42,513 nt of DNA from Moniliella sp. 'wahieum'. Lineage: Eukaryota. The position numbers and the translations under genes were made by a program. Each line of letters opens with the position of its first letter. Position 1 is the first letter of the stretch. Positions 2,147 through 39,232 of this stretch are shown here, piece after piece. Under the pieces are notes generated by a model. The model was given only the letters and a program-made list of their open reading frames with translations. It ran no database searches and had not been told where the DNA came from. The stretch spans positions 372,001 through 414,513 of the forward strand of contig RSEE01000058.1 of assembly GCA_003971905.1 (NCBI GenBank). Direction: 5' to 3'.

Positions 2147-2477
2147 AGCCGACAAGGCGTCCTTTATTTTTTGTACCTTTTTTCCCGTTTGCTTCAGCTT
2201 CACCAGCTTTTGACCTTCTCACAGACCACGAGGCAGTTGCACGCCCAGGTTAGCTGTCAGTCGCGCTGAATACCCAAGTTTTAGCTTTACCCCCTCTGTT
2301 GCTGCTGTGGCCTAAGCGTCGCATGTTACAGGGAATGCATCTAAACTATGCAGTTCATGCGTGGGGACAATTGCCGTATATTAGATCGGCTGTAACATGA
2401 TGAGGAAGAAAAATGCACACGTTGTGCGAGAAGTATAGATCGTCGCATCGCCCGCGCGCTCATCAACCACCAGCCTC

Positions 2478-4943
2478 TCACCTTCGCACCGAGCCCAGGT
2501 TGATGACCGTCTGACCCTTCTTGTTCTTTCCCTTCTTGTTATCCCTCGGTGCACTGGACGAAGATGGGGTACTGCTCGACCCACCGGGCGTAGGGGCCCA
2601 AGCCGACGGCCCCCCTTGCCCGAAACCTTCTCTCTGGCCGAGCGTAGCTTCTGGTCCCACTTATCCGTCTGCGCTGACTTCTGCGGAAGACCAGGGAAGG
2701 CAGCTGCGGGCAGGGCCTTGTTCTTCCCGCTGGTAGGAGCAGAATAAACCACGGTCTGGACAGCGGGCTGGTGGGTAGGCCGAGGAGCAGGCGCGGGAGG
2801 CGGCGCCCAGGATGCCGAGGGCGCAGTGGGCACAACACGGTGACGTGCTGCATTCGCCGCGGAGCCAGGGACATGCGCGCTGCTCGCGCTCAAACTGGCA
2901 GATGCAGCCGGCCTGGCAACAGGTGGCCGGGGTGCAGTTGCACCCCAATTGCCTGGTGGACGTGGGGAGGCCGGGGAACGCGCCGAAGGAACCAAGGCTG
3001 GGAAAAAGTCGTTTGCTGCGGCCGAACGGCTGATACCCCCCATGGCCCGACGGGCCGTCGCCATCGTTCCGGCAGTGGAGGCGTACCCTGCTCTTGGAGC
3101 ACGGGAAGTCGTGCCGCCGAGGGTAGGAAAGGAGTTGCGTGTGGCAGCAAGGGCAGTCCAAGCCCGAAGCAGTTCCGTTGCTTTCTCCTCGGCATGAGGA
3201 TAGTTCTCCCCCGTGGAGATTAGGAGGTCGGCCAATCCTCGAATCAGGCTTGCCCCGTTCTGGATCTTCGCATCGGGATGAACTTCCGTCAGTCCTGCGG
3301 GGGTGGAATCTACCACGCTCCAGACGGTGGCGGCAAGATCATCCGCGGCGGCTTCCCCCGCACGGTAGGAAGTCAACCCGGTGCGGAGGGAGGCTAGTTT
3401 GGATGAGCTGAATGACCCGCCCAACACGGCAGTGGCTAAGCCAATAAAGGCTTGCTGGGCCGCAGTTTCAGAATCTTGTGAAGACCTGCTGAGGGAGGAA
3501 GATGAAGGGGCTTCTGTCAGACGGCCCCCAAATCCATCTCGTCGATTGGGACGTGTGTGGCCCCCTCGCGCGGAGCGACTTTGGCTACTGCTCCGGCACT
3601 GCTACTACCCTCACCAAAAGCCGTATCAACCCGGGCCGCATCGCGCTTTTGCTTGGTGCTCATCATGGAAGCATGCTCTTTGAGGCAATGCGAGTTGTAG
3701 TCCATCTCGTTCTACCAGTTGCAGTTGCTGTTAGTTCAAAGAGCCCAAGCTTGGGAAACAGATGCAAAACGTACCCCAAACACAACGTATTGCTGCTCCC
3801 GACAGCCTGGATTCTGGCACAAAAAGTGCTTCTTGTCAAAATGGAGTTCCAAGTCAAAGTAGTCGCGGTACCATGTTTGTGCCTCAGCCGCAGCCACGGC
3901 GGCATGATTGGCAGCTGCTTCGGCGGCACGACGACGGTGGCGAGTGTCATGGTCGTCGGTATCCTCTCCAGGCGCAACAGGCGGTGCCGCATCAGGCGTG
4001 GCAAAGACAGCGCACATTTGGCACTGGAAGTGTTTCTCACGTAGATGCTTGTACAGTTCATCCGGACCATAGAAAAACTGGTTGCAAAACTCGCACTTGC
4101 GATGCTCGGTCGCATGGTGGGACACGAGTTGGCGCTGCGTGTACAGCGGGTGTTCGTATGTGAAGATTTTCTTGTGCTGGATGCAGAGGTCGCACAGACT
4201 GCGCTGGTGAGCCGCACTAACATGCTCCTTTAGACCGGTCCAGCCTTGGAGGGCACCGTTGGGCCCTGCGCCGCGTGGCCTGAGACCGGGGCACACCTGC
4301 CATGACGGAGGCCGAGGCAGGGAGCGTACGGTCACACTCGAGATGCGAGCAATGAAAGAGAAGCAGCTCGAGCGCATCTTCCTTCTCCCTCTTGGAAGCG
4401 AAATGCAGACCTAGTTTTTCGTCTCGCCACGACGTTTCGTCGGGGGAAAAGGACTCAAACTGCCGTCCTGGCTGGGAGGTAAAGACGACTGTCTTGGCAT
4501 CCGACTTGCAGTACACGCACGACGTTTGCTTGTACAGCGCACGCAGACGCAGCGCGCATCGCCCGCATGTGGTGTGGTTGCATGGATACACGCAGTGCAT
4601 GGCCATCGGATCCGCAGATAAAGCATGCGTCCACACTGGCGTCGTCGTTGAGGGCCGAGTTGGCGATGATGGTAACGTCGGTGGGGGACATGGTGGAGAA
4701 TGCGGGCGGGAGGAGGAGAGGGATGGGCATTGGACTTGGACTTGGATTTGGACTTGGCCTTGGACTTGGTGTGGGCTGCGGTGCTGTCCGTGGGGCAGGG
4801 GGCGGCGTCGGAGGCGGTGCTGGGGGCGGTGCTGGGGCGGTGCTGGGGGCGGTGCTGGGGGCGATGCTGCTGGCGTCGGACACGAGGTCGTCGGGGCCGG
4901 TGGTGAGGGCGGCGCGGAAGGCGGCGCGGCGTCGTGGCGGCAT
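2478..4943 (-). CDS. HEL2: E3 ubiquitin ligase Hel2/ZNF598 (RING + C2H2 zinc fingers; ribosome quality control); several frameshifts, intron ~3712-3774
   Basis: Joined frames give RING CFIC(A)DPMAMHCVYPCNHTTCGRCALRLRALYKQTSCVYCK, then zinc fingers LCDLCIQHKKIFTYEHPLYT, HRKCEFCNQFFYGPDELYKHLREKHFQCQMC and HFDKKHFLCQNPGC, and a basic C-terminus KKGKNKKGQTVINLGSVRR. Intron GTACGT...CTAAC...TAG. Confidence 0.88.
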
Positions 4944-5230
4944 GGCGGTTAGGGCGTGGGAGATGGTGAGTGCAGCGGGTGGATGCAGTTTGGGTTGCAA
5001 AAAAAGCGCCGCGTTGGGTTTGTTCTTCTTTGCGGTGCCGTTTGAAATGTAAATTGGTATGCACACGTGACCTGCCCCCCCGGCGGAACGCAGGCGCCCG
5101 GAAGCAAGCAGCGCCCCCCACCGCCGGAAGCAAAGCCCAGAAGAACTTACGTCAGCCGCGAAGTGTCCCCCCGAAGAAGAAGACAAGACGCTGCGCCGTT
5201 CTTGCTGCCTCCGCAACCGCTCTCCCCCCG

Positions 5231-6730: not shown

Positions 6731-6982
6731 ATGGACTGCAGCTTGCATGTCCTATGCAATCCGTGCTGATGTACGGTCCTAGTGTGCAGCATTGCCAAAA
6801 GGGAGAAAAAAAGCTTGCCACAGCAATCGGGATGGACTGCTGGTCTTGGTTGGGGCCATGGTACCCTGCTCTACGGCTCACGCCCTCAAGACTTGGTATC
6901 TGCACAGCAGCGCCCGCTTCTAATCCATGCATCTTTTCTACGGAGTCAGACAATTGACATGATAGCAAACAATAGGTTAACA

Positions 6983-8317
6983 TTAATGGCCAAGCCCAGC
7001 CAGGAGCGGCGGCAGACCTCGGGGGAGAGGATGATGGCCTCGTTTGGTGTGCTGAGAAGGCGAAGGGTGATGATGGCACTTTTTCCCTGCAGGCGCAGAT
7101 GAGACGCTCGAAGTGGATGTGCTTGCAGAAGTGTGCGAGGTATGATGACTCTGAACAGGGTGCACCAAAGACAATGACTCCCTCGACGTTGAAGCCACGT
7201 GGACATTCTGGATAGAAGATGGTGTAGAAGTAGAGGACGAGGTTGAAGTTGAGGCAGATTGCTTCGACGTGGATGAGGTGAGTCGACGAATGGTGGTCGA
7301 CGAATGGGTGGTCGACGAATGGGTAGTCGACGAATGGGTAGTCGACGAATGGTAGTCGACGAATGAGAGCTTGAACGGTGAGTGCTCGAAGCGCGGGTGC
7401 GCGAAGTGCTCCTACTGGAGGATGATTTGGAAGCGGAGGATCCTCCCGATCCAGCACTGGACGCAACCACCGTATCGGGGACGACGGCGGGACGAGTACC
7501 AGTGGTGAGCCGGTACGCAGGGCAGGTACTTGGCGGAACCTGCGAATCGTACGACAAGAGCCCAAATTTATCGTCACCAGGAAGTGGTGGGTTGGAGGGA
7601 CAGCAACCGGCTTGTCCTAGACTAGGTTCCGACCCAAGAGCCCCACTTTCGCCCCACCCGGCCCACTGCTCACACGAGACAAACTCATACGTTGCGTTCC
7701 AGGTACCGTAGTCGTGCTTGTAATTGGGGAACCAGTTGTTGGGGATATCTTTGCTGCTGCTCCCAGGCGGTGCGGGCCAGGCCAGGTCAAAGTGGATGAA
7801 AGATCCCCACGCATTGGGAGCAGAAGATGTAGCGTTACAGGGAGACCCCGGAACCTTCCACGGACACTGGTCCGTCACCTTGACCACGATCGAAGGCGCC
7901 GACCCATTGTGGGGACCAAAGTTGTACCCCGTGCCCTGGGGAGGCGGCGGGTCGTTAACCGTAGAGACAAGGGTGATGCGGGCACAGCTCCCACAGAGGC
8001 TCCGAACGAGTTGTCTGTTCCAAGGGAAAGGGAGTTGAGCGCTGCTATGGGGTAATGCGAAGAAGCGGCTGTGCAGCCACAGGAACCGAGAAAGTTAAGT
8101 GGATAGTCGTAGTGGGTGAGAGTCTTTGGGATGTGGAGTTAGAGAATGAGTTGACAAGAGAAAAGAACAGAGAACGTACCGCCCATCCCGAGGACGGAAA
8201 TGACCAAGCCTGGTCTTTGGGTTCGGCCCCATCGATGGTAGAGTACTTTGAGGAAGCAGAGACGACCAGTGCACTCGAAGTGCTCAACCAGAACAAGAAG
8301 GAGCGTAAACGAGCCAT
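6983..8317 (-). CDS. Secreted GH45/expansin-like (RlpA-like double-psi beta-barrel) protein with Ser/Thr/His-rich tail; intron 8124-8179
   Basis: Signal-peptide-like MARLRSFLFWLSTSSALVVSA; spliced WA|TLTHYDYPLNFLGSCGC...YPIAALN...CGSCARITL...IVVKVTDQCP...HFDLAWP (TDxCP and HFDL motifs); low-complexity C-terminus. Confidence 0.78.
7282..7365 (-). repeat. 15-bp coding tandem repeat (6 copies of core GTCGACGAATG), encoding HSSTT units
   Basis: Units gtcgacgaatg(g)gt(a/g) read directly; two 14-nt units lack one G of the GGG run. Confidence 0.9.
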
Positions 8318-9696: not shown

Positions 9697-10198
9697 TTAC
9701 CGTCGACGCAGTAAGCTGGCCATGAGGACTCCCCCGATGGCCGCAGCACCAGCCGTGATGGCCATACCAATGTACCCCTCTAACATAACGTCAGTATGTG
9801 ACCACACACAAAGCGATCCCGACATTACCCTTTGCGACATCTCGGTCAATCAAGGCCCCAAGGCTCTGCGCTTGTTGGTTATTAGGTTCGCGGGAAAGTA
9901 GGAGCGAGTTGAACTTGCGCGCCTCGTCAAAGTTGCCTAGCTTGTAGTGCCCCAGGGCAAGGTAGTAAACGCATTCTCTCTCCGTCGGCTCTTTTCTTGG
10001 CGGTAAATGTCGGCAAAGAGACTGACTCCTTGGACCATATCTTGGCGCTGAGGCGACTTGACCAGGCCCCAGGCGTAGTTGAACGTAGTCTGCCCGACAC
10101 GTGACCTTGCGAAGCTTCCTTCTCATATTGGTTGCGCAGAACGGCAAGCTCGGCGGAGAGAGCGCCTCGGCGACGTCGGCGGCATACGGAAGCGACAT
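9697..10198 (-). CDS. FIS1: Mitochondrial fission protein Fis1 (TPR + C-terminal tail anchor); intron 9780-9828
   Basis: [13 protein letters not shown]...[12 protein letters not shown]...[10 protein letters not shown]...[77 protein letters not shown]; intron GTAATG...CTGAC...TAG. Confidence 0.93.
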
Positions 10199-12071
10199 GG
10201 GCGCAGGTGGAGGTGAAAAGAGGACCGAGCGGCGGGCGGTGGCAACGCGGGGATGCGGCGGGGCGGAGCAGCGCGCAGAGGCTCCCGCCAAGAGCATCCC
10301 ACACCGGAAACAGATCGAGGCTAGATATGAAATTTCAGGGGTGCCTGCCGACATGACGTCAGCCTCGGGCTACCCGCCTTCTCCAGCAACGAAAGGTAGT
10401 CAACTATAGGCAGCGATTACAGACGAAGCCTGCATAGGAGACGGGTGTTCCTCCACCTCGCCGATGCTGCTCTGCGTGAGCATCACGCGTACAGCGAAAC
10501 TTCCTTCCTGGATTGACCATCATCCACACTGCCACAGCCTCCTCCTCAACGAGGACCCACGGAGAGAGTACGGAGATGCCACTGCAGCTCGTTCAATTGG
10601 GCTTTGGCGGGAGAAACACACCAATATATGTGGCAGCACCGGCGACGTCATTCTCTTTCAATGGACCGTCTGCGCTCTCAGCCTCTGCACCTCACACGAG
10701 AAACGCTCAACAGGACACTATGCCCAACCAATGGCATCACGTGGGCCACACAAACTCAGAGTAGTTGGCACGTTCCACACGACTAGGTACACCATGCCGC
10801 TCTGCGTTTCGAACGGCTTGAGGTGACTGCCGGGAACACGGCGCATAAACGTATGTGGGTACCAGGAACTCATCCGCTCCCCCCACAGTTGGGACAGTAC
10901 CAGTAACTGCGAATGTATTCTTCTTCAGTTGCTAAACCCGGTCCCAGGCGGGAGAAAGACGAAGGGTGTGGGCGCTGCGCTTCCAGTGTGCCAACCGACT
11001 TCGGCAGCCTTGTTCGTTGTGGGATGGTTTCTGTCGTGATGCGTGCTAGCCAAGAGAGAGGTCGGAAAGCCGTCAGCCACCGAGCCGCACCCCATGATGT
11101 TGTAAGAAGAAGCATACGGTGAAAAGGAGACGAGACACGTTGGAGTCATGTTCAATGGCGGTGATAGAGCGCAGAGAGAGGGTGGATGAAATGCTCGAAT
11201 GCGGAGGTGGATGAAACGCTGCACTACATGCAGAATCTTGCTTTCTTTATACAACCGCTTAGCCTGGCATCGTTCAACCCCATATTGTCTCCATCAGAGG
11301 CCTGGACCCTATCGCCGCATAGTAATTTACGGTCGGTGAGTCCGCACAGCTTGTGGACATGACAATGAGGCGTTGTGGATGGTGATACGGACTCTCCGTC
11401 TGTGCCGTCAAGGCGGCCGGTGCTCCGTCCAGACGCCATTATTGCAAAAGCTGCCATTATGTTGGAAAGGGGGACCGATTCGTACCGTTGAGTAGTAGCT
11501 CGATTAGCAGTGGCGATATAAGGCGCAGTCAGACTCTTTACTATGTGGGCACTCCTCAGCTGCGGTTGATAACGGAACGCATCAGGCCCCAACAACCCCA
11601 AGAGCCCCGCCAGCCCTGTATATCCTTCAATTCGTTGACTTGGTAATGCACAACGGTCGATCTATCAATATATCGTCAACCAACAGGACATCATCCAGCG
11701 TGATGCACACTCTTTTCTCTGCCCAACATGATCTAAGGTAGGTCGGGCGTACCTCTGGCGCCTTTTCTTTCTGCAGGTGTGGGCGACACTTCCAAACCAA
11801 GTACGGGGTGGCGCTGGGGCTAGAGTACAAGTAGCGTAGCCCGTAGCCCGCAGCCCGCAGCCCGCAGCCTGCAGCGCTGTGGTATCTTTTGTTTGCGCAA
11901 CGCGACGTTTTCGGGTCCAGGTCTCAAGCAGACGTTGACCCAGATACATGACTGGCGTTTGCCGTCATGACCTCGACCTTGGAAAGGAGGTGCAGAGCTG
12001 ATATCTTGGATGCATAGACCACCACCATGGTAGTAGAAAATAGGGAAAGGGGGAAAGGAAGGGTAAGAGGC

Positions 12072-15690: not shown

Positions 15691-16625
15691 ACAAAGCTTC
15701 GGGCGCGCCGCCCCCAGATGAAGGAAAAGTCCTCCTAAGTCCGCCTTGGCATTGCATCTTCCCGTGTCCAATGGGACGTGGGCGGCCAAGTTCGACACGC
15801 TGCAGCTGAGGAAGGATCGATGGAGGGCCAAGCCGGGCGGGGCAGGAGGTACCCGCCTGCGTGGCGAGAGATTGGAGTGCCAGTCGGGCAAGCAATGATA
15901 ACTCAGTACGGAGTACGGGAAGAGCTGGCCCACCCAACCTAGGTGGCAGCTTGGCAGTTCGAGGCCCAGGCCCAGACCCAGGCCCAGGCAACCTAGTTAA
16001 CCTAGTTGCCACTGTCTTACCATCCGAGTGATTTGCCCCGGCCGATCCGTCTCGGCCTGGGAACGACGATAGAGAACAGGCACCGCTTCCGCTGTGTCGC
16101 CGACGATCGGATCTGAGTCGAGGCGAGGGCGGCGGCGGCGAGGGCGGAAGGGAAGCGGTGCGGTCCTGGCTTGCTTGGTAGATCCGAGTTGAGGCACTCA
16201 GACGAGCGGATGGAACCCCTGGGGCGAAACGGATACCTTCCTGGTACCCTGAGGGCCGAATAAGCTGTGCCTCGCTTTTTTTCTGTCCCCATGCGCCAAC
16301 GCCCGACTTGAGGTGGACTCGCTCACCCAGCTCGCAGTTCTCAGATCTCTATGCGCCAACACTCAACACTCAACACTTGACGTTTAAGATTTAACGCTCA
16401 GATGTGACGTGTGACATGTGACTCCAGTACAAAAACGGGAGGAAGGTAGAAGACTATGAAAGTACATCGATACAAGGCAACACGGCTGGGCAGCAAGCCA
16501 GCCAACAATCAAACAAAATGTCAAAAGGCGACTCGGGCCCCGTCTGCCCACGTCCATCGTGCGGTGCGAAACTGCACACGCTCTCAGTCCAAGTCGGCGT
16601 GTCGTCCGGACAGGGGGAGAGGTAG

Positions 16626-19600
16626 TTAGGGCGGGCGGAGAGGAGGGGAGAGGGGGAGGGAGTGCGGGTGCGAGTGCGAGTGCGAATGCGAGTGCGAGTG
16701 CGAGTGCGGGTGGAAGGGCGCATGTGGGTGTACTTGTGCATGAGCATGAGCACGAGCATGGGGAGAGGGAGGGGTGGAGCGGAGCGAGAGAAGAAGGGTG
16801 AGCAAGCGCATGGGAAAGGGTTGTGGTGCAGCGTGGTGGGCAAATGGGGTCGACGTGGCCCGGAAAGCGGGCGGGGGCAACCGTCTTGTTCGTTGGCCCG
16901 GGCAGCAGCGGGGGGCGGGACGAGGCCAAAGGCGTACCGCACTTGCACCTGTACTTGCGCCTGTACTGGCCCCTGCACCAGCACCTGCGGCTACACCCGA
17001 CGTTGGCATGCTGGTACGGGGAGCAACTGGGCGAGCGAGGCTAAGGTGCCGTGCGCTCGAAAGAGAACTCCCACTGGCTGTGCCACGTGAGTGCGCAGGA
17101 GAAGGGGGCAAAAGGGTATGCGCTTGCGTTGGTCTGTCCCCCCGTCGCCGAGGGGAGGGGCAGGGTGCCTGTCGCGACAGCCGAAGCGGCCGTGTGCAAC
17201 TTGCCATTGGGATTGGTGCGGGACAAAGACCCGGGTCCGGTCCAAGTAGGCAGCGAGGGAGGGGCGAGGTGTCGGCTGTCGTTCCCGTGTGGGTGGTGCG
17301 GAAACAAGGGTTTCGAAGCAGAGCTCCACCCGGTAGCCACGGTCGAATTGGATGTAGAACGCGTACGCGAGTCTGCCTTGGCTCCTCGCGGTGTCGTGGG
17401 AGGGGCACGAGTTCGCCCGAGGGGTGGCTGAAGCCTAACCCGGCCGAGGGGGGCATCCGCCCCGCCCGAGCCGCATGGGACGAGGCGGGGGTGTGGATGG
17501 GTGAGCCAAGTGGGACTGGCCCGCTGCGGGAGTCCGATGGGCCCGTCGCTTGGCGGCCATCGTGGCCGGTTTCGCGCCCTGGAGCAGGACCGAGCGTAAT
17601 GCCCGAATGGCTTTTGGGGGTTGCATCGGCCGTGAGCAGGGAGGAGCAGAGACCAATCATCTGCAGCAGCCGTGCTCGGCCTCAGCAGCAGGATCTTCGG
17701 GGCAAGAAGGTGCGGAAGCATGCGGCACGGATGAGTTGGCGCTTCGCCTGAGCCTACCGGCCCAGAGGCCATAGCCACCGCAGCACCCGAGGACGACTCG
17801 CGCATGTAGGCAAACAGGTACATTAGCTGCTCTGCCCGCGGCAAACACCACTCGTCGGAATGCTGGAGGCACAAATGCCGCACATTCAACTGGTGTGGGC
17901 GGGACCCCACTGGCAAGGGTCAAGGAGGAAGGGGCATGCGACGAGCTACCTGCGCCCATATCCTCCTGTGAGCATGTTCGGTAAGAACGTCGGTGGCCCC
18001 ATGCTCCCGCAGCACTTGGCTCTGTTGTGGCCATGAGACGGGCAAATGCGGGTTCCGAGTACAAGGGAACAAAGACAGCCTCGACGTACGGCACCACTTG
18101 TTGCCAGAACTCTGTCCATACTTGGGCCATGGTGGTTACGAGCGCCAAGCCCTGCAGTGCGGTTAGGCGGGGCATTCAACATCCCCACGCCCTCGATCAC
18201 CAAGGCCATCACTTCGGCTGTAAACGTTTCCAGCGCGCGCGCCGGTCTTCGTTCAGCCAGGTGACGAAAATGAAGGCAGGCTGACTGTTCACCTCGTCCA
18301 AGCACCATCCGCGTCCATTGCCGGCGAACAGCGGGAGCACTTTCGAACACAGCCCTCCAGCTGTTGGAGGCATACCAACTCGAGGAAGGGGTCCCAAGAG
18401 AGGGAAGGGGCGTCGAACCAGCGCCCGCTGGCTCAGGAGAGGGGAAGTAAGACTAGGTAAAGAAGGATTCATCCCTCGGGAGAAAGAGCCGTAGATGAGT
18501 GAGGGGGAGGCGATGCGAGATGGCGTATCTGTACTGAAGCTGATGAAACGGCCGCCATAGCTGCTGCTTAGGGCGTCCCCACCAAGCACACTGCCATCTC
18601 CTGCAACAGAGGAAGCATCTCCCAATTCACGCGCGAGAAAGCGCACGTCATACGCATTGCTCCCCCCCGTGCCGTAGCCGTCTGTCCCAGTCCCAGTCCC
18701 AGTGGAGACACCTGGAAGGGAGGGGAGCGAAGGGAGGGCAGTGCTGGGTCGAGAGCGGGAGGGGAAGGATGGGACGCCATTGTAGCCCAACGAAAGCGAA
18801 CTGGAGTCGGTCGAGTCGGTGTGGCCCGCGGAAGAAGGGGGCTGGGGAAGCCCACCACCCAAGATGGTGGTAAGCGGATGGTCGCCCATGTGGGGCAAGT
18901 TCAACCCGGCGAGATGGTCGGTATTGTTCTTCTCGAGCACGCGGACAAAGATGTACCGCCCAGCAGAGGGGGTGGCCATGTCGGACCGGCCAGGGACAAG
19001 CCTTGGGCCTGCATCTGGGCGGTTTGGGCCGTGGCAGCGGCCATGTCAAGCGCCGCCTCGGGCGAAGGGCGGGGGGGATCACACCGGGCGTCATGCGCGC
19101 CGGCACAGCAATTTCAACCCGGGCCCAGCCGGTATGGTTGAGGGCGGTCTGGACGTAATTTAAGCGAGGATCGGGCCAGGGCGAGGCCATGCCGGGCGGG
19201 GCAGCGTCATGGAGGCTGAGCAAGACGCGCATCAGCTCTGCCAGGGCAATGCCATGAGAAACAATCACAATGTGGACCACGTCGCGAGGGATCTGCCGCC
19301 CCGAAAGGCCTGTGCGCCGGCATAGTGAGCCGAAGGCGCTTCGTTCCGCAGCGCCTCGACTCGGGGCAAAATGTACCGCCGCACGGCGGTGGCCATGCGT
19401 GCGTGACCTCCTCCAGCGACTCGCCGTGGGGAACTTGGCGAGGCGGTGGGCAGGAGCGGGGGGGTGGCCGTGTCGATGCGCGGGGGGGGTGTCGTGGTGG
19501 GACCAGGCCTTGCCCTCGGCAGCGCCAAAGTTCTGCTCGCGCAGGGTGGCGGTGAGGACAGTGGGCACAGGCGTGGTGGGGCGGCAGTGATGGCGTCGAC

Positions 19601-19837
19601 GACCTGGGCGGCACGGGCGAGGTCGGAGGAGTAGATGGCAGCAATGGGGGTGGCGGCAAAGTAGGAGGCGAGCGCGGCGGTCTGGGCCTTGCCGTCGGGG
19701 GCAAGGGGGGCGTCGGTGACGCCGGTCCAGGTGGTGGGGTCGGGGATGGCGGCCTGGGCATTGCGGACGAGGGTGACGAGGAGGGAGCGTAATGGGTGGA
19801 AGGGCAGGGGGGCGGCGGGCGGCGCGTCGAGGGGCAT
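16626..19837 (-). CDS. Putative fusion: N-terminal degenerate histidine phosphatase (PGM/TIGAR-like) + HbrB-like (Bit61/PRR5/Protor) domain; C-terminal end approximate
   Basis: Phosphatase motifs LVTLVRNAQ, DAPLAPDGKAQ, IYSSDLARA, LREQNFGAAEG, GESLEEV, IVIVSHGIAL, NHTGW, VLEKNNTDHL. HbrB-like motifs W..VCSKVLPLFAG, AQVWTEFWQQVVPYVEAVFVPL, LNVRHLCL, ARLLQMIGLCSS. The two are joined by the stop-free ORF 18209-18979. Confidence 0.68.
16662..16709 (+). repeat. (GTGCGA)n hexamer microsatellite, ~8 units
   Basis: gtgcgggtgcgagtgcgagtgcgaatgcgagtgcgagtgcgagtgcgg read directly. Confidence 0.85.
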
Positions 19838-21020: not shown

Positions 21021-21949
21021 CCCCAAGACGGATGAGTACTGATAGTGACTGTACTTTGAGATCTGACGGATGGTTACCGATTACGCGATATGTTACAGAA
21101 GAGGTGGGTCTGCCAGTGATGGTGATGGTGATGATGATGGTGATGATGGTGGTGGGGTGCCTGGTGCCTGATGACGCTGACGGTAAAGCTCCTCAAACAC
21201 TTGTACTCCTTACACTTTTCTATACGAGAGTAAAGAGGTGAAGCTTGTCGCTTGAAGACTAAGGCCTAAGTGCCTCAGGCCTCAGGGGCCAAAGGCCTAC
21301 TGTTGAGGCAGTATATCACGTGTCACAAATCTGGCGAAAACAGGCAACCGAAATGTAACTGGCATTCCCCTGTGACATGGTGACATGTGAGAGATCGTGA
21401 GATCCTGAGAGATCTGATAGGCCAAGAGGCACTAAACCTAAGGGATCTAAGGCCTAAGGGGCCTGAGGTTCTGAACCTTGAAGGCCAGCCTGAAAGGATG
21501 GGGGGATACGAGAGAAGCACTACGCTGAGCGATCAATGGGCGAGCGCGATGATCGGCCACTTAAGGATAGCCCAGAACCGCGGTTGTCCGTTAACGTTTA
21601 ACTGAGAAGTATAGCTGCGCTATCAAGCTAAGGACGTTGCATGTACAGGTGGAAACAGTCAGAGATAGCTTCTCGTAAGCCCCTGAGATGTGACACCTGA
21701 GGCCTGACGCTAGTCCGACCTTGAAGCTTGAAGCTTGAACGCAACATGGAGAAGAGGGAAAAGGAGGGGAACGAGGTGTGACATGTGACGGTATGTAACC
21801 AAGTAACCAATCCGCAGCGCCCACAGGTCTCGACAAACTGTTGAACCAGTTCCCGTTGCCAGCCATATGTGGCTGTGATCAAGCCATCACGCCAAACAGT
21901 GATGTCACATGCCACCCACTCCAACATAGCACGGGTCAGGCCCTGGGTC

Positions 21950-23885: not shown

Positions 23886-25592
23886 ATGTCCACCCATCCT
23901 CCTGATCCTGTGCGCCCCGCTGGAACCACAGCTTCTCCTTGGAAACCCTAGCCGATAACAAGAGGCTCCGGTCCGTGTCGCCACTTGCGCCTAGTCCAGC
24001 AACCCCCCTCCGTCCATCCCTTTGCCGCCCCCATTCTGCCCGGCCCCCAATCCTCAGACCTGCATCGGGTCCTCCTGCAGAGTTGGACCCATCTGAACCA
24101 CCTGTACGCGGCCGTCTGCCCTCGCTCGCTCAAGGCTTTGGCTTTGCAAACCCCCCGTTTCCCCCTGTATTCGCCCCTTTCCGTCTCACGAACCCTCTCA
24201 GGTACTCCTTCAGGTACCCCCTCTATGGCCCCCCGCCCCTCCATCCCGTCTCTTACCTCTTCCTTCACCCGGGCGGATCTGAGCGGTCCCTCAGTCCGCG
24301 CTCCAGCTTCTCAGCTACCCCTGGCTCTGGCTTGGATCCATCTCGCTTGCCCCCTTGTCTTCGCGTCTTCGCGACGGAAAAGTTGGTACGGCGAGGTGCC
24401 ATCCTGTCGATCCAGGCTCTCATTCGCCAGCGTACCGCGCCCGGGTCCCTTAGCTCCCATCCACCCTCCCTTGGCAGAGGAGAGGGAAGAACGGTACACT
24501 GAAGGCCGATGGAGCTGGTTTTCGTCCCAGACGGCGCCACAGCGACGCAGGACCCACGCAGCCCTCTCCCCTTCGTTCGGGCATCGCATCGCCCATGGTG
24601 GCCCTTATGCCCGCCCCAGCCTCGAGGGAGAGGGTGGCGTAGGCCTAGAACAGGGTCGGGAATGGCCTACCCCACACCCTTCCCACCCGCACCGCTCCCT
24701 CCCGGCTTCCCCTGTACCGAGCCGCCATCGATCACCACCTCCTCCCTCAACCCCCCCGCACTGGCACCCCGCCCGTTCGGACCTCAACCCGTTTCTTCGT
24801 CGGCACAGTCGAGCCAGTACCGCCAGGGGACCGAGCACGAAGGCCCCCTCCTCTTCTCTGTGGGTTTCCGATCCTTCGTTCAAGGAACGGGGCGCGGCCT
24901 GCTTCCCCCCAAGGGGATGGGTGAGCACTTACCCGCCTGCCGTACTCGCGGAGGGTAACGAACCCTCTGCCGCCTCGCCCTATGTTCCAGTACATTCTCA
25001 ACGTTTGTACGCGCCGTTTCCGGCCATGCGACAAGAGAGGACACCACGGCCGTTCCAGTGCACGTCGTGTGGCGCGGCCTTTGCGCGCAACCACGATTTG
25101 CGCCGTCACGCTCGTATTCATCTCCAGACCAAACCGTTCGCCTGTCCTTCGTGCAACAAACCCTTTTCGCGCAAAGATGCTCTGAACCGTCACGTGCTTG
25201 TCAAGGTACGTCCCTTGCCTTGCCCCTCCTTTTAGCTCCTTTGCCACGTCCTCTCCTTCTCCTCTTTCTCTTCTCCTTCTCCCCCACACTCGTCACCTCT
25301 TTCCCACGGGTGGTGAAAACGGCTGCATCTTATGGACTGTCTACTGACTTGAACTTTCGCTTGCTGGCTTGTTCACTTGGTCACTTGGTTGTTGGTCGTT
25401 TGGGCTAGGAGGAAACGCTGCCTGTGCGCGTCGTCGACGTCGAAACCGACATGCTCCCCTTCCCGCGTGGCCAGTACGCAAGATGGTAACGCGGTAGGAA
25501 ACGCGCAGCTCCCTCGGCCAGTCCTCCAGCGAGCGCGGCGAATGCACAGCCACGGTCGCCCGTCTGCATTCTCCGCGCCTGGCGAGGCGTAG
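23886..25592 (+). CDS. C2H2 zinc-finger transcription factor (two fingers near the C-terminus); donor at 25206; both ends approximate
   Basis: RPFQCTSCGAAFARNHDLRRHARIHLQTKPFACPSCNKPFSRKDALNRHVLVK followed by GTACGT donor; Pro/Ser-rich N-terminal region. Confidence 0.82.
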
Positions 25593-26265
25593 TAGCCACG
25601 CGCGCCAGACGGCTTGGATTTCGGCTGCGCCCGATCCGCAGTAACGACAACTCACGTTTTTTATTCATTTACCTCAATCCGTCCGACAGATGTTGGTTAG
25701 AAGGAAAGCACGTGGCTACTACCATCTAAGATCTAAGATCTGAGGCCCGCCTGTGCCCTTGGCGTACTAGCCCTTGTTTTGTCTTCCCTTCCATCGCTTG
25801 GGCACACCGGTGTAGACGTTGGGCGGTGGGGGTGGTTCGACCGGTGGAGTTAGATTGTGGACCTGGGCCTTGGATTGAGGCTGCAACGAGGGAGGATAGG
25901 TACCAAGGAAACCAGAGGTGCACAGAACGAATCCCCTCCCACGAGCCAACCGGGCCCTCTCCCGTCAATATCAATATAACAGCCGCTTTCCTGTGGGATG
26001 CGCGACGGCGGAGCGGGCAACGGGGCGGGCAGCACGGCGGGAGTCATGCCGCGCTGGAATAGTCAGCCTTAAGTTACTCCCTATATACCACGTCAAATCA
26101 GCGCCTGGGTCAATTGGATTAGCTCGATCATCAGCGAGGGGCAATTCCAAAGCCTATCTAGTCTCCTAGCTATTACAGCTTGATCCGCACAGACGAGTTA
26201 TCCACCCACCACCACCCACCACCGCTCCCACCACCACCACGCCCCACATCCCACCCACGTTGCCC

Positions 26266-27513
26266 ATGCTCAAGACAGTCTACCTCTGCTGCAGCGGCCA
26301 TGCCGAACATGTACGTGATTGATCGCCCGTGCACCCTTACTACTTTCTTGTATCGTTTTAAACCCGCCCCCCTCCCGTCGGAGGTTGGGGATCCCCTTCA
26401 CATCTCTTCTAACCAATCTGGATGTACCTGTCCAGAATGCGCTCGGTGTCCGGCCCATCTCCGACCCTCCCCTCACCGCGCTCGGACAGGAACAGTGCGC
26501 TCGGGTGGCCACCGATCCCAATGCCCAGGAGGTGGGCGAGCGCGTGGAGCTCATTGCCAGCAGTGCACTCAAGGGCGCCCTTGAAAGCACCCGCCTCTGT
26601 TGGCCTCAGTCGATTGCTCGTCTGGGCTGCGTCCATGTGCTCCCGTTACAGGAATGTGGGTCCGGTCCGTGCGCGAGTGGGTCCCGGCCTAACCTCAGCT
26701 CGGACCCGGCCTTTGCTGCACTGGGTAGTGCGGTGGGCTTGAAGCACGGGTGGAACGAAAAGACAGACATGTACGCTTCGACACGCGAAGCGTTGCAGAT
26801 TCGTGCGGCCTGGGTACGCGCATGGATCAAGTCCCGTCCTGAACGCACCTTGCTCCTCGTTAGCCACCTCCACTTTCTTCGTCTTCTTACCCAAACTACC
26901 ACCACCACAAACCGAATGGGTTCCTACCGAAGTGCAACAGTGGTTTCTCGATCCTACTTCGCCCCTCGCCGCTCCACCGCTCACATTTGGTGCGACCATA
27001 ACAAAAGGCGGATCGGGTGCGGCTACGTTGTGGGACCTTAATCCTGGCCTGGTGGGCTCCTACGCGGCTCCCGGTGCCCGCGTCAATCCCACAGTCGGCT
27101 CTCTGGCCCCAATTTCCTTGGGTGCACAGGATTCGACCGACCTGCTCCCGCCTCTCGACTCGCTCGGCTTCAATATCGATCTCGACCTCGATTCGGCGGC
27201 GGAGCGGTCGGTGGCAGAAGTGGAAGGGGAAGTGCAGGCTCGCCTGACGGGACTCGAAGCCCAGGAACAGGAACTGCATGACCTCGAATCCCGTTTGGCT
27301 GAAATGGAAGCTCGGACGAAAAAGGTACGTTGTTGAAAACTATACTTGCTCGGATTGGTTTCGTTTGTTGCGGCCTCCTTTGGAGCGGACGCACTTGGAC
27401 AGAGCCACGTCAGCTGACCTCACCGCTTCGCTCGGTCGCGTTGCTTGCTTATACTTTCCTGATTGCTTGCCTTTGGCTTGGGTTCGGGACAGTTGGAAGC
27501 GGCGGGTTTGTAG
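26266..27513 (+). CDS. Histidine phosphatase (phosphoglycerate mutase-like) family protein, catalytically degenerate, with C-terminal coiled coil; introns 26311-26435 and probably 27325-27492
   Basis: Spliced MLKTVYLCCSGHAEH|NALGVRPISDPPLTALGQEQC...ELIASSALKGALEST...LQECGSGPCASGS...RAAWVRAWIKSRPERTLLLVSHLHFLRLLT...EVEGEVQARLTGLEAQEQELHDLESRLAEMEARTKK|LEAAGL*. Confidence 0.78.
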
Positions 27514-37200: not shown

Positions 37201-38512
37201 GCCGATGGGGACGATCGATGGTCCACCGCTCCACAACCCACCCACAAGGTAGGTCATGACATGGGCTAGGTGATGCAGGGAGGGTGGGTGGTGGGTGCGA
37301 AAAGGACCCTGCACAGAGTGGCAGCAAAGAAGACGTTGAGCAACACCCTCGATGCCGACATGGCCACCGCTGTTCACACGCCCCGCTGTGCCACACGCCC
37401 AGCGAACCTCTTGGCAAACTTTTGACTCCGACGCCGATGGCAATGGTCTGGTCCAGTTCGTCGGCCGCGATGACACTGGCATACGCCCACATTGACCAGA
37501 AGAACAGGTTCGGACGCAATCCAAGCCCTCCAACGCCCTCCCACCCGATCGTCCGACGAGCATCTCGCGTTTCCCGGGCAATGGATGCTGACGAGTTCCC
37601 GTCGGCATAGTCGTTGAAGGTGAGGAACAATGCGGATCCCCGGAGCGAAAGCGGGGCGCCGTCCCCACCCAAAGGGTGGGCCATTGTAGAATTTTTTGAT
37701 GGCTTTCTACACCGGAGAGGCAGGTCAAGACGGCGACTCCGGCTACCACAATTCCAGATAGAACCGCGACTTTTGACAGTCGCGACTGAGTTGTGATCAG
37801 TCGGGGGCGCCATGGCGGATAGCAAGCGAGTGGGAGCAGAATCATTAATCATCACTCCTACTGCTCAGTGCACCGAGCGCGACACAGTTGTGTTGCCAAG
37901 GAGACATGTGCGCGCCCACGGCGCTTCAACGTTGGTATAGCCAGGATAATGGCGGTGGAAGGGGTGCCAGGGATGAGGGGGCGCGATGGTAAAAACCCAC
38001 GTATGGCCATCCTATGGGGTCAAGGGACGCACGTCAAAGTACATTTCCCTCCCGCCATTTTGAGAGAGCCCGGTACCCATACCAGCCAGACAAACAGACG
38101 ACAAAACGCGGACATGCGCCCACCTTCGCCCACGAGCCAACAAAAAGCAACGCGCCCAACCAGTCCATCGATGCGGCGATCGGCCGGGCGGGCTAACATG
38201 CCGGTACCAACGATGCGGCCGGCGACGAGGGCAAGAGCGGATACAGGCCAAGCGTCTCGGTGGGTATTGAGTGTTGAGCAAGGGCCCGGGCGGCCTGGTC
38301 TGCAGCGGATCCTCGTTGGGTGAAGTCGTCGAGGGGGGATAGGGAAGGAGGGAGGTAGCGTGGGCGGAGGGATGGTGTGGGCTTATGGGTTGAGGATAGA
38401 GGAGGACACGTGCGGGGCGAACAGACCCAAGAGGTTAGCATTAATCGAGGCGTGCTTCCGACCGTCAATGGAGCTGAGCCGGTGTACATGTGAAAGCGGA
38501 GCAAAAAAGTAA

Positions 38513-38606
38513 GGACGACGCCAGAATCGAACTGAGAATAACAGAGCTCGTGGAGCTGTACGATCGTGAAGCCACAATCTGTCGTGATACCTTTTCACAC
38601 GTAATC
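38513..38606 (-). tRNA. Second tRNA-His(GTG) with 25-nt intron (variant copy)
   Basis: Reverse complement GATTACG-TGTGAAAAGGTATCACG-ACAGA-TTGTGG[cttcacgatcgtacagctccacgag]C-TCTGT-TATT-CTCAG-TTCGATT-CTGG-CGTCGTC-C, then T6; near-identical to 569-664 but with two single-G losses. Confidence 0.85.
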
Positions 38607-39232
38607 GACGCTGGGAAACGGCAGAGGACCCACAGGAGTGGCAATTGGCCCTTGGACCCTGCTGTCGATCGGCTTTCCCGACGCAGAGGGCGGCATGCGA
38701 TGCGATCGCCAGGTGCGGATGGCGCAGAGGGCGGCGATCCGTCCAAGGCAGGTGAAGGGCAGGCCGAGGGACGGTGAGGGAGGGTGGAGGAAAGACGGAG
38801 GGAGGACAGACGGAGGGGAAGGCGGGGGGGGTACCACAGACTGGCGGGGAGCAAGCGCCGTGGCGGGAACGCCAGTGGTTGATGTTTACTCAGGTAAAAT
38901 TAACCGTGGCTGGGCGCTGGCTGCCGCGCGCGTGGGGATCACCTCATCACCGGTTGGGGATCACCGATGAGAGCGCTAACCCCCAGGCGTCGAGGCGCGC
39001 CAACACGGGCGCCGTGCGAGGCGCCGCGGGTGGGGAGGTGCGGGGCGCGGGGGCTGTGTGGCTGCGACGGCTGCTGTGTCTGGCTTGCTGGGGCGAGCCA
39101 GCCGCACCAGGCCGCAGTGGCCCGCCGCAGGCACACGCAGGCACACGTAGGCAGCACACACAGGAAGGAGGGCCTGGGAGGGGCCTTTGGCTGTCCCGTG
39201 TCTGCGCCTCCGCCACCGCGGCCCCACCGCTT

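Follow-up and report, generated by a model that had tools for sequence, protein, structure and literature searches.

A TIGAR-like histidine phosphatase domain joined to a candidate Bit61/Protor-type TORC2 subunit in Moniliella sp. 'wahieum' and in Ustilaginomycotina

Results

The gene described here lies on the minus strand of a 42,513-nucleotide stretch of the Moniliella sp. 'wahieum' genome (assembly GCA_003971905.1, contig RSEE01000058.1, positions 372,001 to 414,513), referred to as the window. It is one of several copies in this genome and is labelled C58 (G000:C58); all window coordinates are those of the whole stretch (Table 1). The gene reads as a histidine phosphatase domain followed by a linker, an HbrB domain and a C-terminal tail, and we consider the main result to be the apparently active TIGAR-like domain carried on Bit61 across the smut fungi, above the dead enzyme that seems to be present here. 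Every motif that an initial annotation of the sequence had named for the two domains was found on the minus strand where it had been reported. Nine frames of the window were scanned with Pfam, and two exceeded their curated cut-offs: His_Phos_1 on 19265-19837 (E 1.4e-11, 44.9 bits against a cut-off of 21.7) and, in the corresponding window piece, HbrB on 17660-18175 (E 1.1e-8, 35.7 bits against 22.7). Both of the earlier domain assignments thus stand by hidden Markov model. The phosphatase domain of the window copy is 42% identical to that of a Tilletiaria protein (P0001) across 76 amino acids, and the C-terminal tail had no Pfam match. The gene may end beyond the stop codon at 16628-16626, because the stop of the allelic copy falls about 40 bases further; an alternative end lies at about 16586-16584.

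A single coding frame for the two domains

In a frame-aware alignment of the window copy to a profile of 21 homologs, the path from the phosphatase start to HbrB contained no stops and 13 one-base frame breaks in 677 codons, in an indel-rich assembly with 0.8-2.5 frame breaks per 100 codons. In the last strand of the phosphatase domain, C58 and its paralog C63 differ by 3/1/8 substitutions at the first, second and third codon positions; the counts are 1/0/11 for the next 20 codons (the junction) and 12/6/39 for the distal linker, with a single frame throughout. For the same pair, the ratio of nonsynonymous to synonymous substitution (dN/dS) was about 0.06 over the end of the phosphatase domain and the junction, and about 0.13 over 124 codons of linker; all of our dN/dS values are rough Nei-Gojobori counts on blocks of 21-124 codons. 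No stop codon in the coding frame was found at the junction in any of four copies. An L[AS]?GG pattern, which is a weak one, occurs somewhere in 22 of 23 homologs, the linker motif YDxxxLAREL occurs in 15 of 23 by the strict pattern, and the junction peptide resembles, by eye, the C-terminal tail of stand-alone sister phosphatases.

The rival explanation is that the apparent single gene is a pair of neighbours or an artefact of the assembly, with a base-calling error at the catalytic site. The density of frame breaks would allow this, and the single frame is open to objection at 18437, where a base present only in C63 is missing from C58, C60 and C52; because three of the four close copies lack it, the frame at this point depends on C63, C16 and the homologs. 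C58 and C60 have six frameshifting gaps of this type in common along the gene, including within the phosphatase domain, and C63 and C16 are each open from the linker into HbrB. The unbroken open reading frame originally described at 18209-18979 survives in part: the linker is coding, but about 18437-18353 is out of frame, and the open frame is partly accidental because this piece sits between compensating indels. An intron or poly(A) site that would have separated the domains was looked for as well, and none of the simple signals (AATAAA, a CTRAY branch site or an AT-rich gap) is present between them. Because six loci are alike, the coding signature runs through the linker, these signals are absent and dozens of intact homologs carry both domains in one chain, we regard it as practically certain that the two domains are joined in one coding frame and that the fusion is real. 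Two genes or an artefact would be a most improbable explanation, the more so as the codon in question varies synonymously among copies.

Six copies in the genome

HbrB matches were found at six loci (10 of 10 candidates scored), and each of the six copies has a phosphatase unit upstream of HbrB with no stops, as had been claimed for the window copy. They fall into pairs: C58/C60, with 92% DNA identity; C63/C52, with 72% identity to the window copy; and C4/C16, which is distant from the window type. Rictor likewise has two near-identical copies (95.5%), and for this reason the six fusion genes are taken as three paralogs, each present in two haplotypes. HbrB in the paralogs scores E 2.5e-20 to 3.7e-25 (73.6-89.3 bits) in Pfam. 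The C4/C16 phosphatase domain fails Pfam, yet aligns to P0001 at 36% (E 3e-41), and P0011, from another organism, is a relative of this third paralog. C58 and C63 have two more neighbour genes in common, among which the fusion gene is inverted, and this points to a block duplication. No copy with an intact catalytic His was found: with the intact Tilletiaria protein as query, 17 of 17 candidates were scored and the matches were confined to the six loci, in an assembly that may be incomplete. A stand-alone phosphatase used as query gave two matches among 11 candidates in this genome, both of them fusion loci. In the HbrB tree the six copies group together (99) and adjoin Tilletiaria (97), with support from the Shimodaira-Hasegawa-like approximate likelihood ratio test only.

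Homologs and origin of the fusion

An exhaustive HMMER search with the C63 phosphatase frame gave 45 matches; both Pfam domains are present in 16 of the 30 that were scanned. Further protein searches found both domains in one chain in 32 of 37 and in 23 of 37. The architecture is intact across Ustilaginomycotina, with one-chain members in Tilletiaria anomala, Ceraceosorus, Violaceomyces, Thecaphora frezii, Testicularia, Ustilago (including U. maydis UMAG_02755), Sporisorium, Pseudozyma, Moesziomyces, Kalmanozyma, Melanopsichium, Exobasidium, Meira, Parajaminaea, Sympodiomycopsis and Jaminaea. Every named Ustilaginomycotina match keeps the fusion, and His_Phos_1 was found in none of 11 named HbrB proteins from outside the group (Botryobasidium, Mortierellaceae, Saitoella, Phenoliferia). 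Stand-alone sister phosphatases occur in Mixia and Rhodosporidiobolus. A midpoint-rooted tree of 42 rows separates the 31 phosphatase domains of fused type, as a single clade, from the 11 stand-alone domains (100/100). Because the fused domains are a single clade and the stand-alone query matches only fusion loci here, these data fit one ancestral fusion in Ustilaginomycotina.

Other collections yielded less. A metagenome scan with the C63 query found the gene in none of 53 stretches, and a scan with the alignment found it in one of 90, a short relative with introns and an intact RHA. A word-indexed search of low sensitivity found no longer proteins matching the C63 HbrB piece among 1192 candidates, which we regard as a failure of sensitivity because later searches turned up many. 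The C16 piece matched HbrB clusters in the ESM Atlas at 0.86-0.90, and the full fusion gave no usable match there. One Phenoliferia record, P0104, is a partial gene model with HbrB and PF00230 and is probably a gene-model join.

Predicted structure

The AlphaFold2 model of the Tilletiaria protein (20-row alignment) has two confident domains, a 140-residue disordered linker and a predicted template modelling score (pTM) of 0.39, which implies no fixed domain arrangement. The predicted local distance difference test score (pLDDT) of the linker is <50 except for a helix at 445-455, which falls at the conserved YD..LARE motif. The intact phosphatase domain best matches TIGAR (fold E 7.6e-13, sequence E 1.2e-16), and 3e9c/3dcy are the closest solved structures. 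Because identity to TIGAR is only 20-27%, its substrate cannot be transferred to this family. Two family profiles, A1 and A2, match yeast Bit61 in the structure of TOR complex 2 (TORC2; 9rsq_E) at E 4e-16 and 7.4e-18, respectively. The model of the C16 HbrB piece has a pLDDT of 83. As a separate observation, this model (L009:5073-5618) resembles cullin repeat 1 (Z 13.3, root-mean-square deviation 3.3, 132 aligned), a similarity of borderline strength for a helical bundle. The fold-library output for it did not include Bit61, an absence that is uninformative.

Catalytic site, pocket and selection

The phospho-accepting His of the RHG motif is present in none of the six copies. The window copy has Asn in its place, as was first noted, and the residue is genuine: the codon is AAT in C58 and C60, AAC in C63 and C52, and CAT in none of the four, so that a base-calling error is rejected. 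C4, C16 and the independent protein P0011 have R-A-P at the nucleophile site, and the six copies and P0011 form a seven-row clade of His-less domains (100/99) with long branches. A census of 125 proteins, many of them close relatives, included 73 with both domains; 15 were dropped for a predicted start after the motif, and RH[GA] is kept in 56 of the 58 scored. The idea that RN is conserved across fungi, as a lineage-wide trait, is thereby rejected. The loss of His is local, and the general form of the protein an active-looking enzyme, because so many fused homologs retain the motif. Both exceptions belong to the Jaminaea cluster, and the loss happened at least twice because Jaminaea falls in another clade. 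In Jaminaea rosea (P0016/P0051), the RHG and the FGxAEG segment were lost in the same fusion and HbrB keeps 15 of 15 near-invariant columns; Jaminaea has also lost R75.

With the pocket numbered as in the Tilletiaria protein, the claim that the rest of the pocket is intact holds only in part. The window copy retains R75, R125, E153, H243 and G244, but is changed at H76 (H76N), G77 (G77A), S79, D81, N82, A88, R279, R281 and N284. R125, E153 and H243 are kept in four of the six copies (C58, the window copy, C60, C63 and C52), and C4/C16 and P0011 have lost R125 and G244. Across 19 intact fusions, 81 columns are near-invariant; the window copy retains 59 of them and C4/C16 retain 35-37. Changes in the window copy are concentrated in the nucleophile loop, where 6 of 9 columns differ (H76N, G77A, S79, D81, N82 and A88), compared with 16 of 72 in the remainder (p 0.01 by Fisher's test), with the caveat that the list of loop columns was drawn from the conserved-column comparison itself. 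Canonical catalysis has very probably been lost in the window copy. It is improbable that the window-type domain is instead a weak or re-routed enzyme, in which Asn, Glu and the second His act with a water nucleophile or on a new substrate. The general acid Glu and the second His are present, and certain pseudophosphatases stay active according to the accessible text of PMC13216928, but the same source describes the His of the histidine phosphatase fold as transiently phosphorylated and a His-to-Ser Pfk26 of yeast as inactive; the phospho-accepting His defines the mechanism of the fold, and six nucleophile-loop residues are changed.

The His-less domain is nevertheless maintained by purifying selection. 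Between C58 and C63, dN/dS was about 0.20, 0.18, 0.10 and 0.05 in four phosphatase blocks and 0.05 in HbrB. Such low values between paralogs sharing the Asn, well below 1, argue for a domain that is maintained, and a decaying pseudogene domain was rejected.

This selection, the five residues R75, R125, E153, H243 and G244 present in C58, C60, C63 and C52, and the convergent His loss in Jaminaea would all suit the proposal, made in the initial annotation, that the dead pocket binds a phosphorylated metabolite and relays glycolytic state to TORC2. However, pocket positions are kept at 5 of 8, which is not above the background of 59/81 (73%; probability of five or fewer, 0.38), and the retention of those five residues has a probability of 0.21 at background conservation. 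Moreover, N82, R279, R281 and N284 are changed, the third paralog and P0011 lack R125 and G244, Jaminaea lacks R75, and two separate domains on a long disordered linker with so low a pTM offer no direct allosteric path. We therefore consider a metabolite sensor unlikely.

Neighbouring genes

A second His_Phos_1 gene (E 6.5e-5) lies about 6.5 kb from the fusion gene. In the frame read, its N-terminal motif region is CSGHAEH, not RHG, in a region with frameshifts, and 9 kb away from the C63 paralog there is a copy with 66% identity. The ZNF598/Hel2-like and Fis1 genes of the window have about 70% identical copies, also neighbours of each other, on C5 and C27. Together with the C58/C63 block, this pair suggests an old large-scale duplication, with Rictor staying single; searches with flanking DNA scored 38 of 291 and 38 of 360 candidates and are a partial measure of synteny. 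The window also holds an Expansin-like gene, a C2H2 zinc-finger gene and four short elements that occur at dozens of genomic places with 70-98% identity.

Table 1. Features of the fusion gene, its third paralog and the neighbouring genes
Feature	Position	Strand	Basis or remark
Start ATG	19837	-	motif reading of window
N-terminal histidine phosphatase domain, branch 1, TIGAR-like, catalytic His replaced	18907..19837	-	Pfam, homology
R-N-A-Q, Asn codon AAT	19762-19760	-	replaces R-H-G-E; whole element 19754..19765
SSDLARA	19630-19610	-	window motif
LREQNFG	19544-19524	-	window motif
VSHGIAL	19262-19242	-	window motif
NNTDHL	18928-18911	-	window motif
Junction peptide after last phosphatase strand, LGG motif at its end	18847..18906	-	codon-position pattern
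Ser/Gly-rich linker, predicted disordered, one short helix motif	18376..18846	-	dN/dS, model, motif count
Helix motif YDxxxLAREL in linker	18652-18623	-	conserved among fusions
HbrB (Bit61/Protor-type) helical domain, approximate ends	17590..18375	-	Pfam, profile match
SKVLPLFAG	18346-18320	-	window motif
VWTEFWQQ	18121-18098	-	window motif
LNVRHL	17889-17872	-	window motif
RLLQMIG	17672-17652	-	window motif
Low-complexity C-terminal tail, His-Ser repeat at its end	16584..17589	-	alignable in C58, C60, C63, C52
Third paralog	L008:3567-5732 (C4), L009:3511-5690 (C16)		phosphatase domain below Pfam cut-off, retained
Second His_Phos_1 gene	26250-27041	+	
ZNF598/Hel2-like gene	2381-5000	-	
Fis1 gene	9791-10369	-	
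Expansin-like gene	6946-8094	-	EXPB1_D1
C2H2 zinc-finger gene	23952-25235	+	
Short repeated elements	565-676, 2060-2184, 21490-21930, 38500-38607		

Discussion

The genome carries the core domains of TORC2, namely RICTOR_N on C6/C83, CRIM (Sin1) on C165 and FRB (TOR) on C67/C57, with the Rictor frames fragmentary in this assembly. Weak extra FRB matches at C79:290309-290500 and C3:535393-535539 possibly belong to a divergent second TOR gene. No HbrB type other than the fusion gene was detected in this genome, which has TOR, Rictor and Sin1, and the early designation of the gene as a candidate TORC2 subunit holds up. As judged from orthology, the protein is likely to be bound to TORC2. In yeast, Bit61 contacts only the HEAT-like domain (HD) of Avo3, at the rim of TORC2 (bioRxiv 10.1101/2025.07.02.662585), and is part of a charged, membrane-facing surface of the complex (bioRxiv 10.1101/2025.07.02.662585; PMC9555796). 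Bit61 and Bit2 are non-essential and the accessible portions of both papers report no mutant phenotype; the 2025 structure paper calls Bit61 mysterious and describes the double mutant as without phenotype. PMC9555796, in its accessible text, doubts the orthology of Bit61 and Protor.

Each half of the protein has well-known relatives. Bit61/Bit2 of yeast, Bit61 of S. pombe and Protor1/2 (PRR5/PRR5L) likewise have HbrB (PF08539) after a long disordered N-terminal stretch, and Bit61 in PDB 9rsq/9rss/9rst is matched by the profiles of this family. In contrast to these proteins, the window family adds an N-terminal histidine phosphatase domain and a long C-terminal tail, and has three paralogs here per Rictor gene; Avo3 binding is predicted from orthology. 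The intact homologs find their best sequence and fold matches in TIGAR (human 3dcy, zebrafish 3e9c) and PhoE/CobC-type branch-1 phosphatases, and the TIGAR triad His11/Glu102/His198 (PMC11109194, accessible text) corresponds to H76/E153/H243. Unlike TIGAR, the domain is fused to HbrB and, in this genome, has lost its nucleophile His. U. maydis UMAG_02755, T. anomala K437DRAFT_239542 and the P. hubeiensis 'TORC2 subunit BIT61' have the same domain order, linker motif and junction, but these orthologs keep RHG, whereas the copies described here are His-less, triplicated and without the RRGW..KHG motif. Yeast Pfk26 and YLR345W likewise retain a fused domain in which the RH-motif His is replaced, to judge from the available part of PMC13216928; their partner is a 6-phosphofructo-2-kinase, whereas here it is a TORC2 subunit.

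With confidence slightly better than even, we lean towards a Bit61/Protor-type TORC2 subunit that ancestrally tethered an active phosphatase and that here carries it as a conserved non-catalytic module. In an ancestor of Ustilaginomycotina, a stand-alone TIGAR-like phosphatase would have been joined to the front of a Bit61-type gene. By orthology to yeast Bit61, the HbrB domain would dock on the HEAT-like domain of Avo3/Rictor at the membrane-facing rim of TORC2, and, as the model suggests, the flexible linker would keep the phosphatase domain near the complex without a fixed contact. In most Ustilaginomycotina, the domain keeps the full catalytic set, and its most likely activity is the hydrolysis of a small sugar- or glycerate-phosphate close to TORC2. 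This lineage has very probably lost phospho-His catalysis; its gene was triplicated and the fold is still held by selection, and the domain most likely serves in protein binding or as a scaffold, not as an enzyme or a metabolite sensor. TIGAR itself has catalysis-independent protein-binding roles (PMC11109194, in the part available), and the independent recurrence of His loss in Jaminaea gives convergent support to the module.

Alternatively, the phosphatase domain could be a passenger that shares a transcript and a location with HbrB yet works on its own, apart from TORC2, or the protein could be largely off the complex. The long disordered linker without predicted packing, the dispensability of Bit61/Bit2 and the separate genes of most fungi are what such a domain would predict; the retention of the fusion and its linker motifs by all named Ustilaginomycotina matches, even without catalysis, is not, and we find this alternative slightly less likely than a sensor.

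Apart from the missing base at 18437, several observations weigh against a conserved TORC2-bound module. The five pocket residues still present in window-type copies fit ligand binding, and motif loss does not always end histidine phosphatase activity (PMC13216928, accessible text). The HbrB domains of this genome lie on long branches and keep 9-11 of 15 near-invariant columns, and the C-terminal RRGW..KHG motif, found in 18 of 23 homologs, is present in none of the six copies; some paralogs may thus have left TORC2. There are also three Bit61-type paralogs to one Rictor gene. Finally, Tilletia and Malassezia are absent among the named matches, with no architecture census aimed at them, so that the range of the fusion may be patchy.

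A bolder extension, which we hold to be doubtful, is that the smut fungi have a metabolite arm on TORC2. At the plasma membrane, the Bit61-tethered, TIGAR-like domain would act on a glycolytic phospho-metabolite, by hydrolysis in most species and by binding alone in this fungus and Jaminaea, and would thereby adjust TORC2 output to carbon flux. If so, the fusion would serve as a Rosetta stone for Bit61/Protor, indicating that in all eukaryotes they recruit a TIGAR-like enzyme in trans, with the three His-less paralogs acting here as alternative adaptors of TORC2.

The architecture is already present in public databases, where each ortholog has a single-domain automatic name, one of them 'TORC2 subunit BIT61'. 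We found no description of the fusion in the open literature, including the accessible parts of PMC11541241 and PMC4612450; subscription journals, most supplements and omics tables listing UMAG_02755 were outside this scope and may mention it. Nor did we find in the open literature any TOR-complex subunit described as carrying a metabolic phosphatase domain, as this protein would. Bit61/Protor is the least understood subunit of TORC2, and an enzyme fused to it across a subphylum offers a testable hypothesis about what it contributes, with tractable models in U. maydis (UMAG_02755) and the yeast Moesziomyces. The forms range from active through partly to fully degenerate and would make up a natural series from enzyme to pseudoenzyme in which the fold remains under selection.

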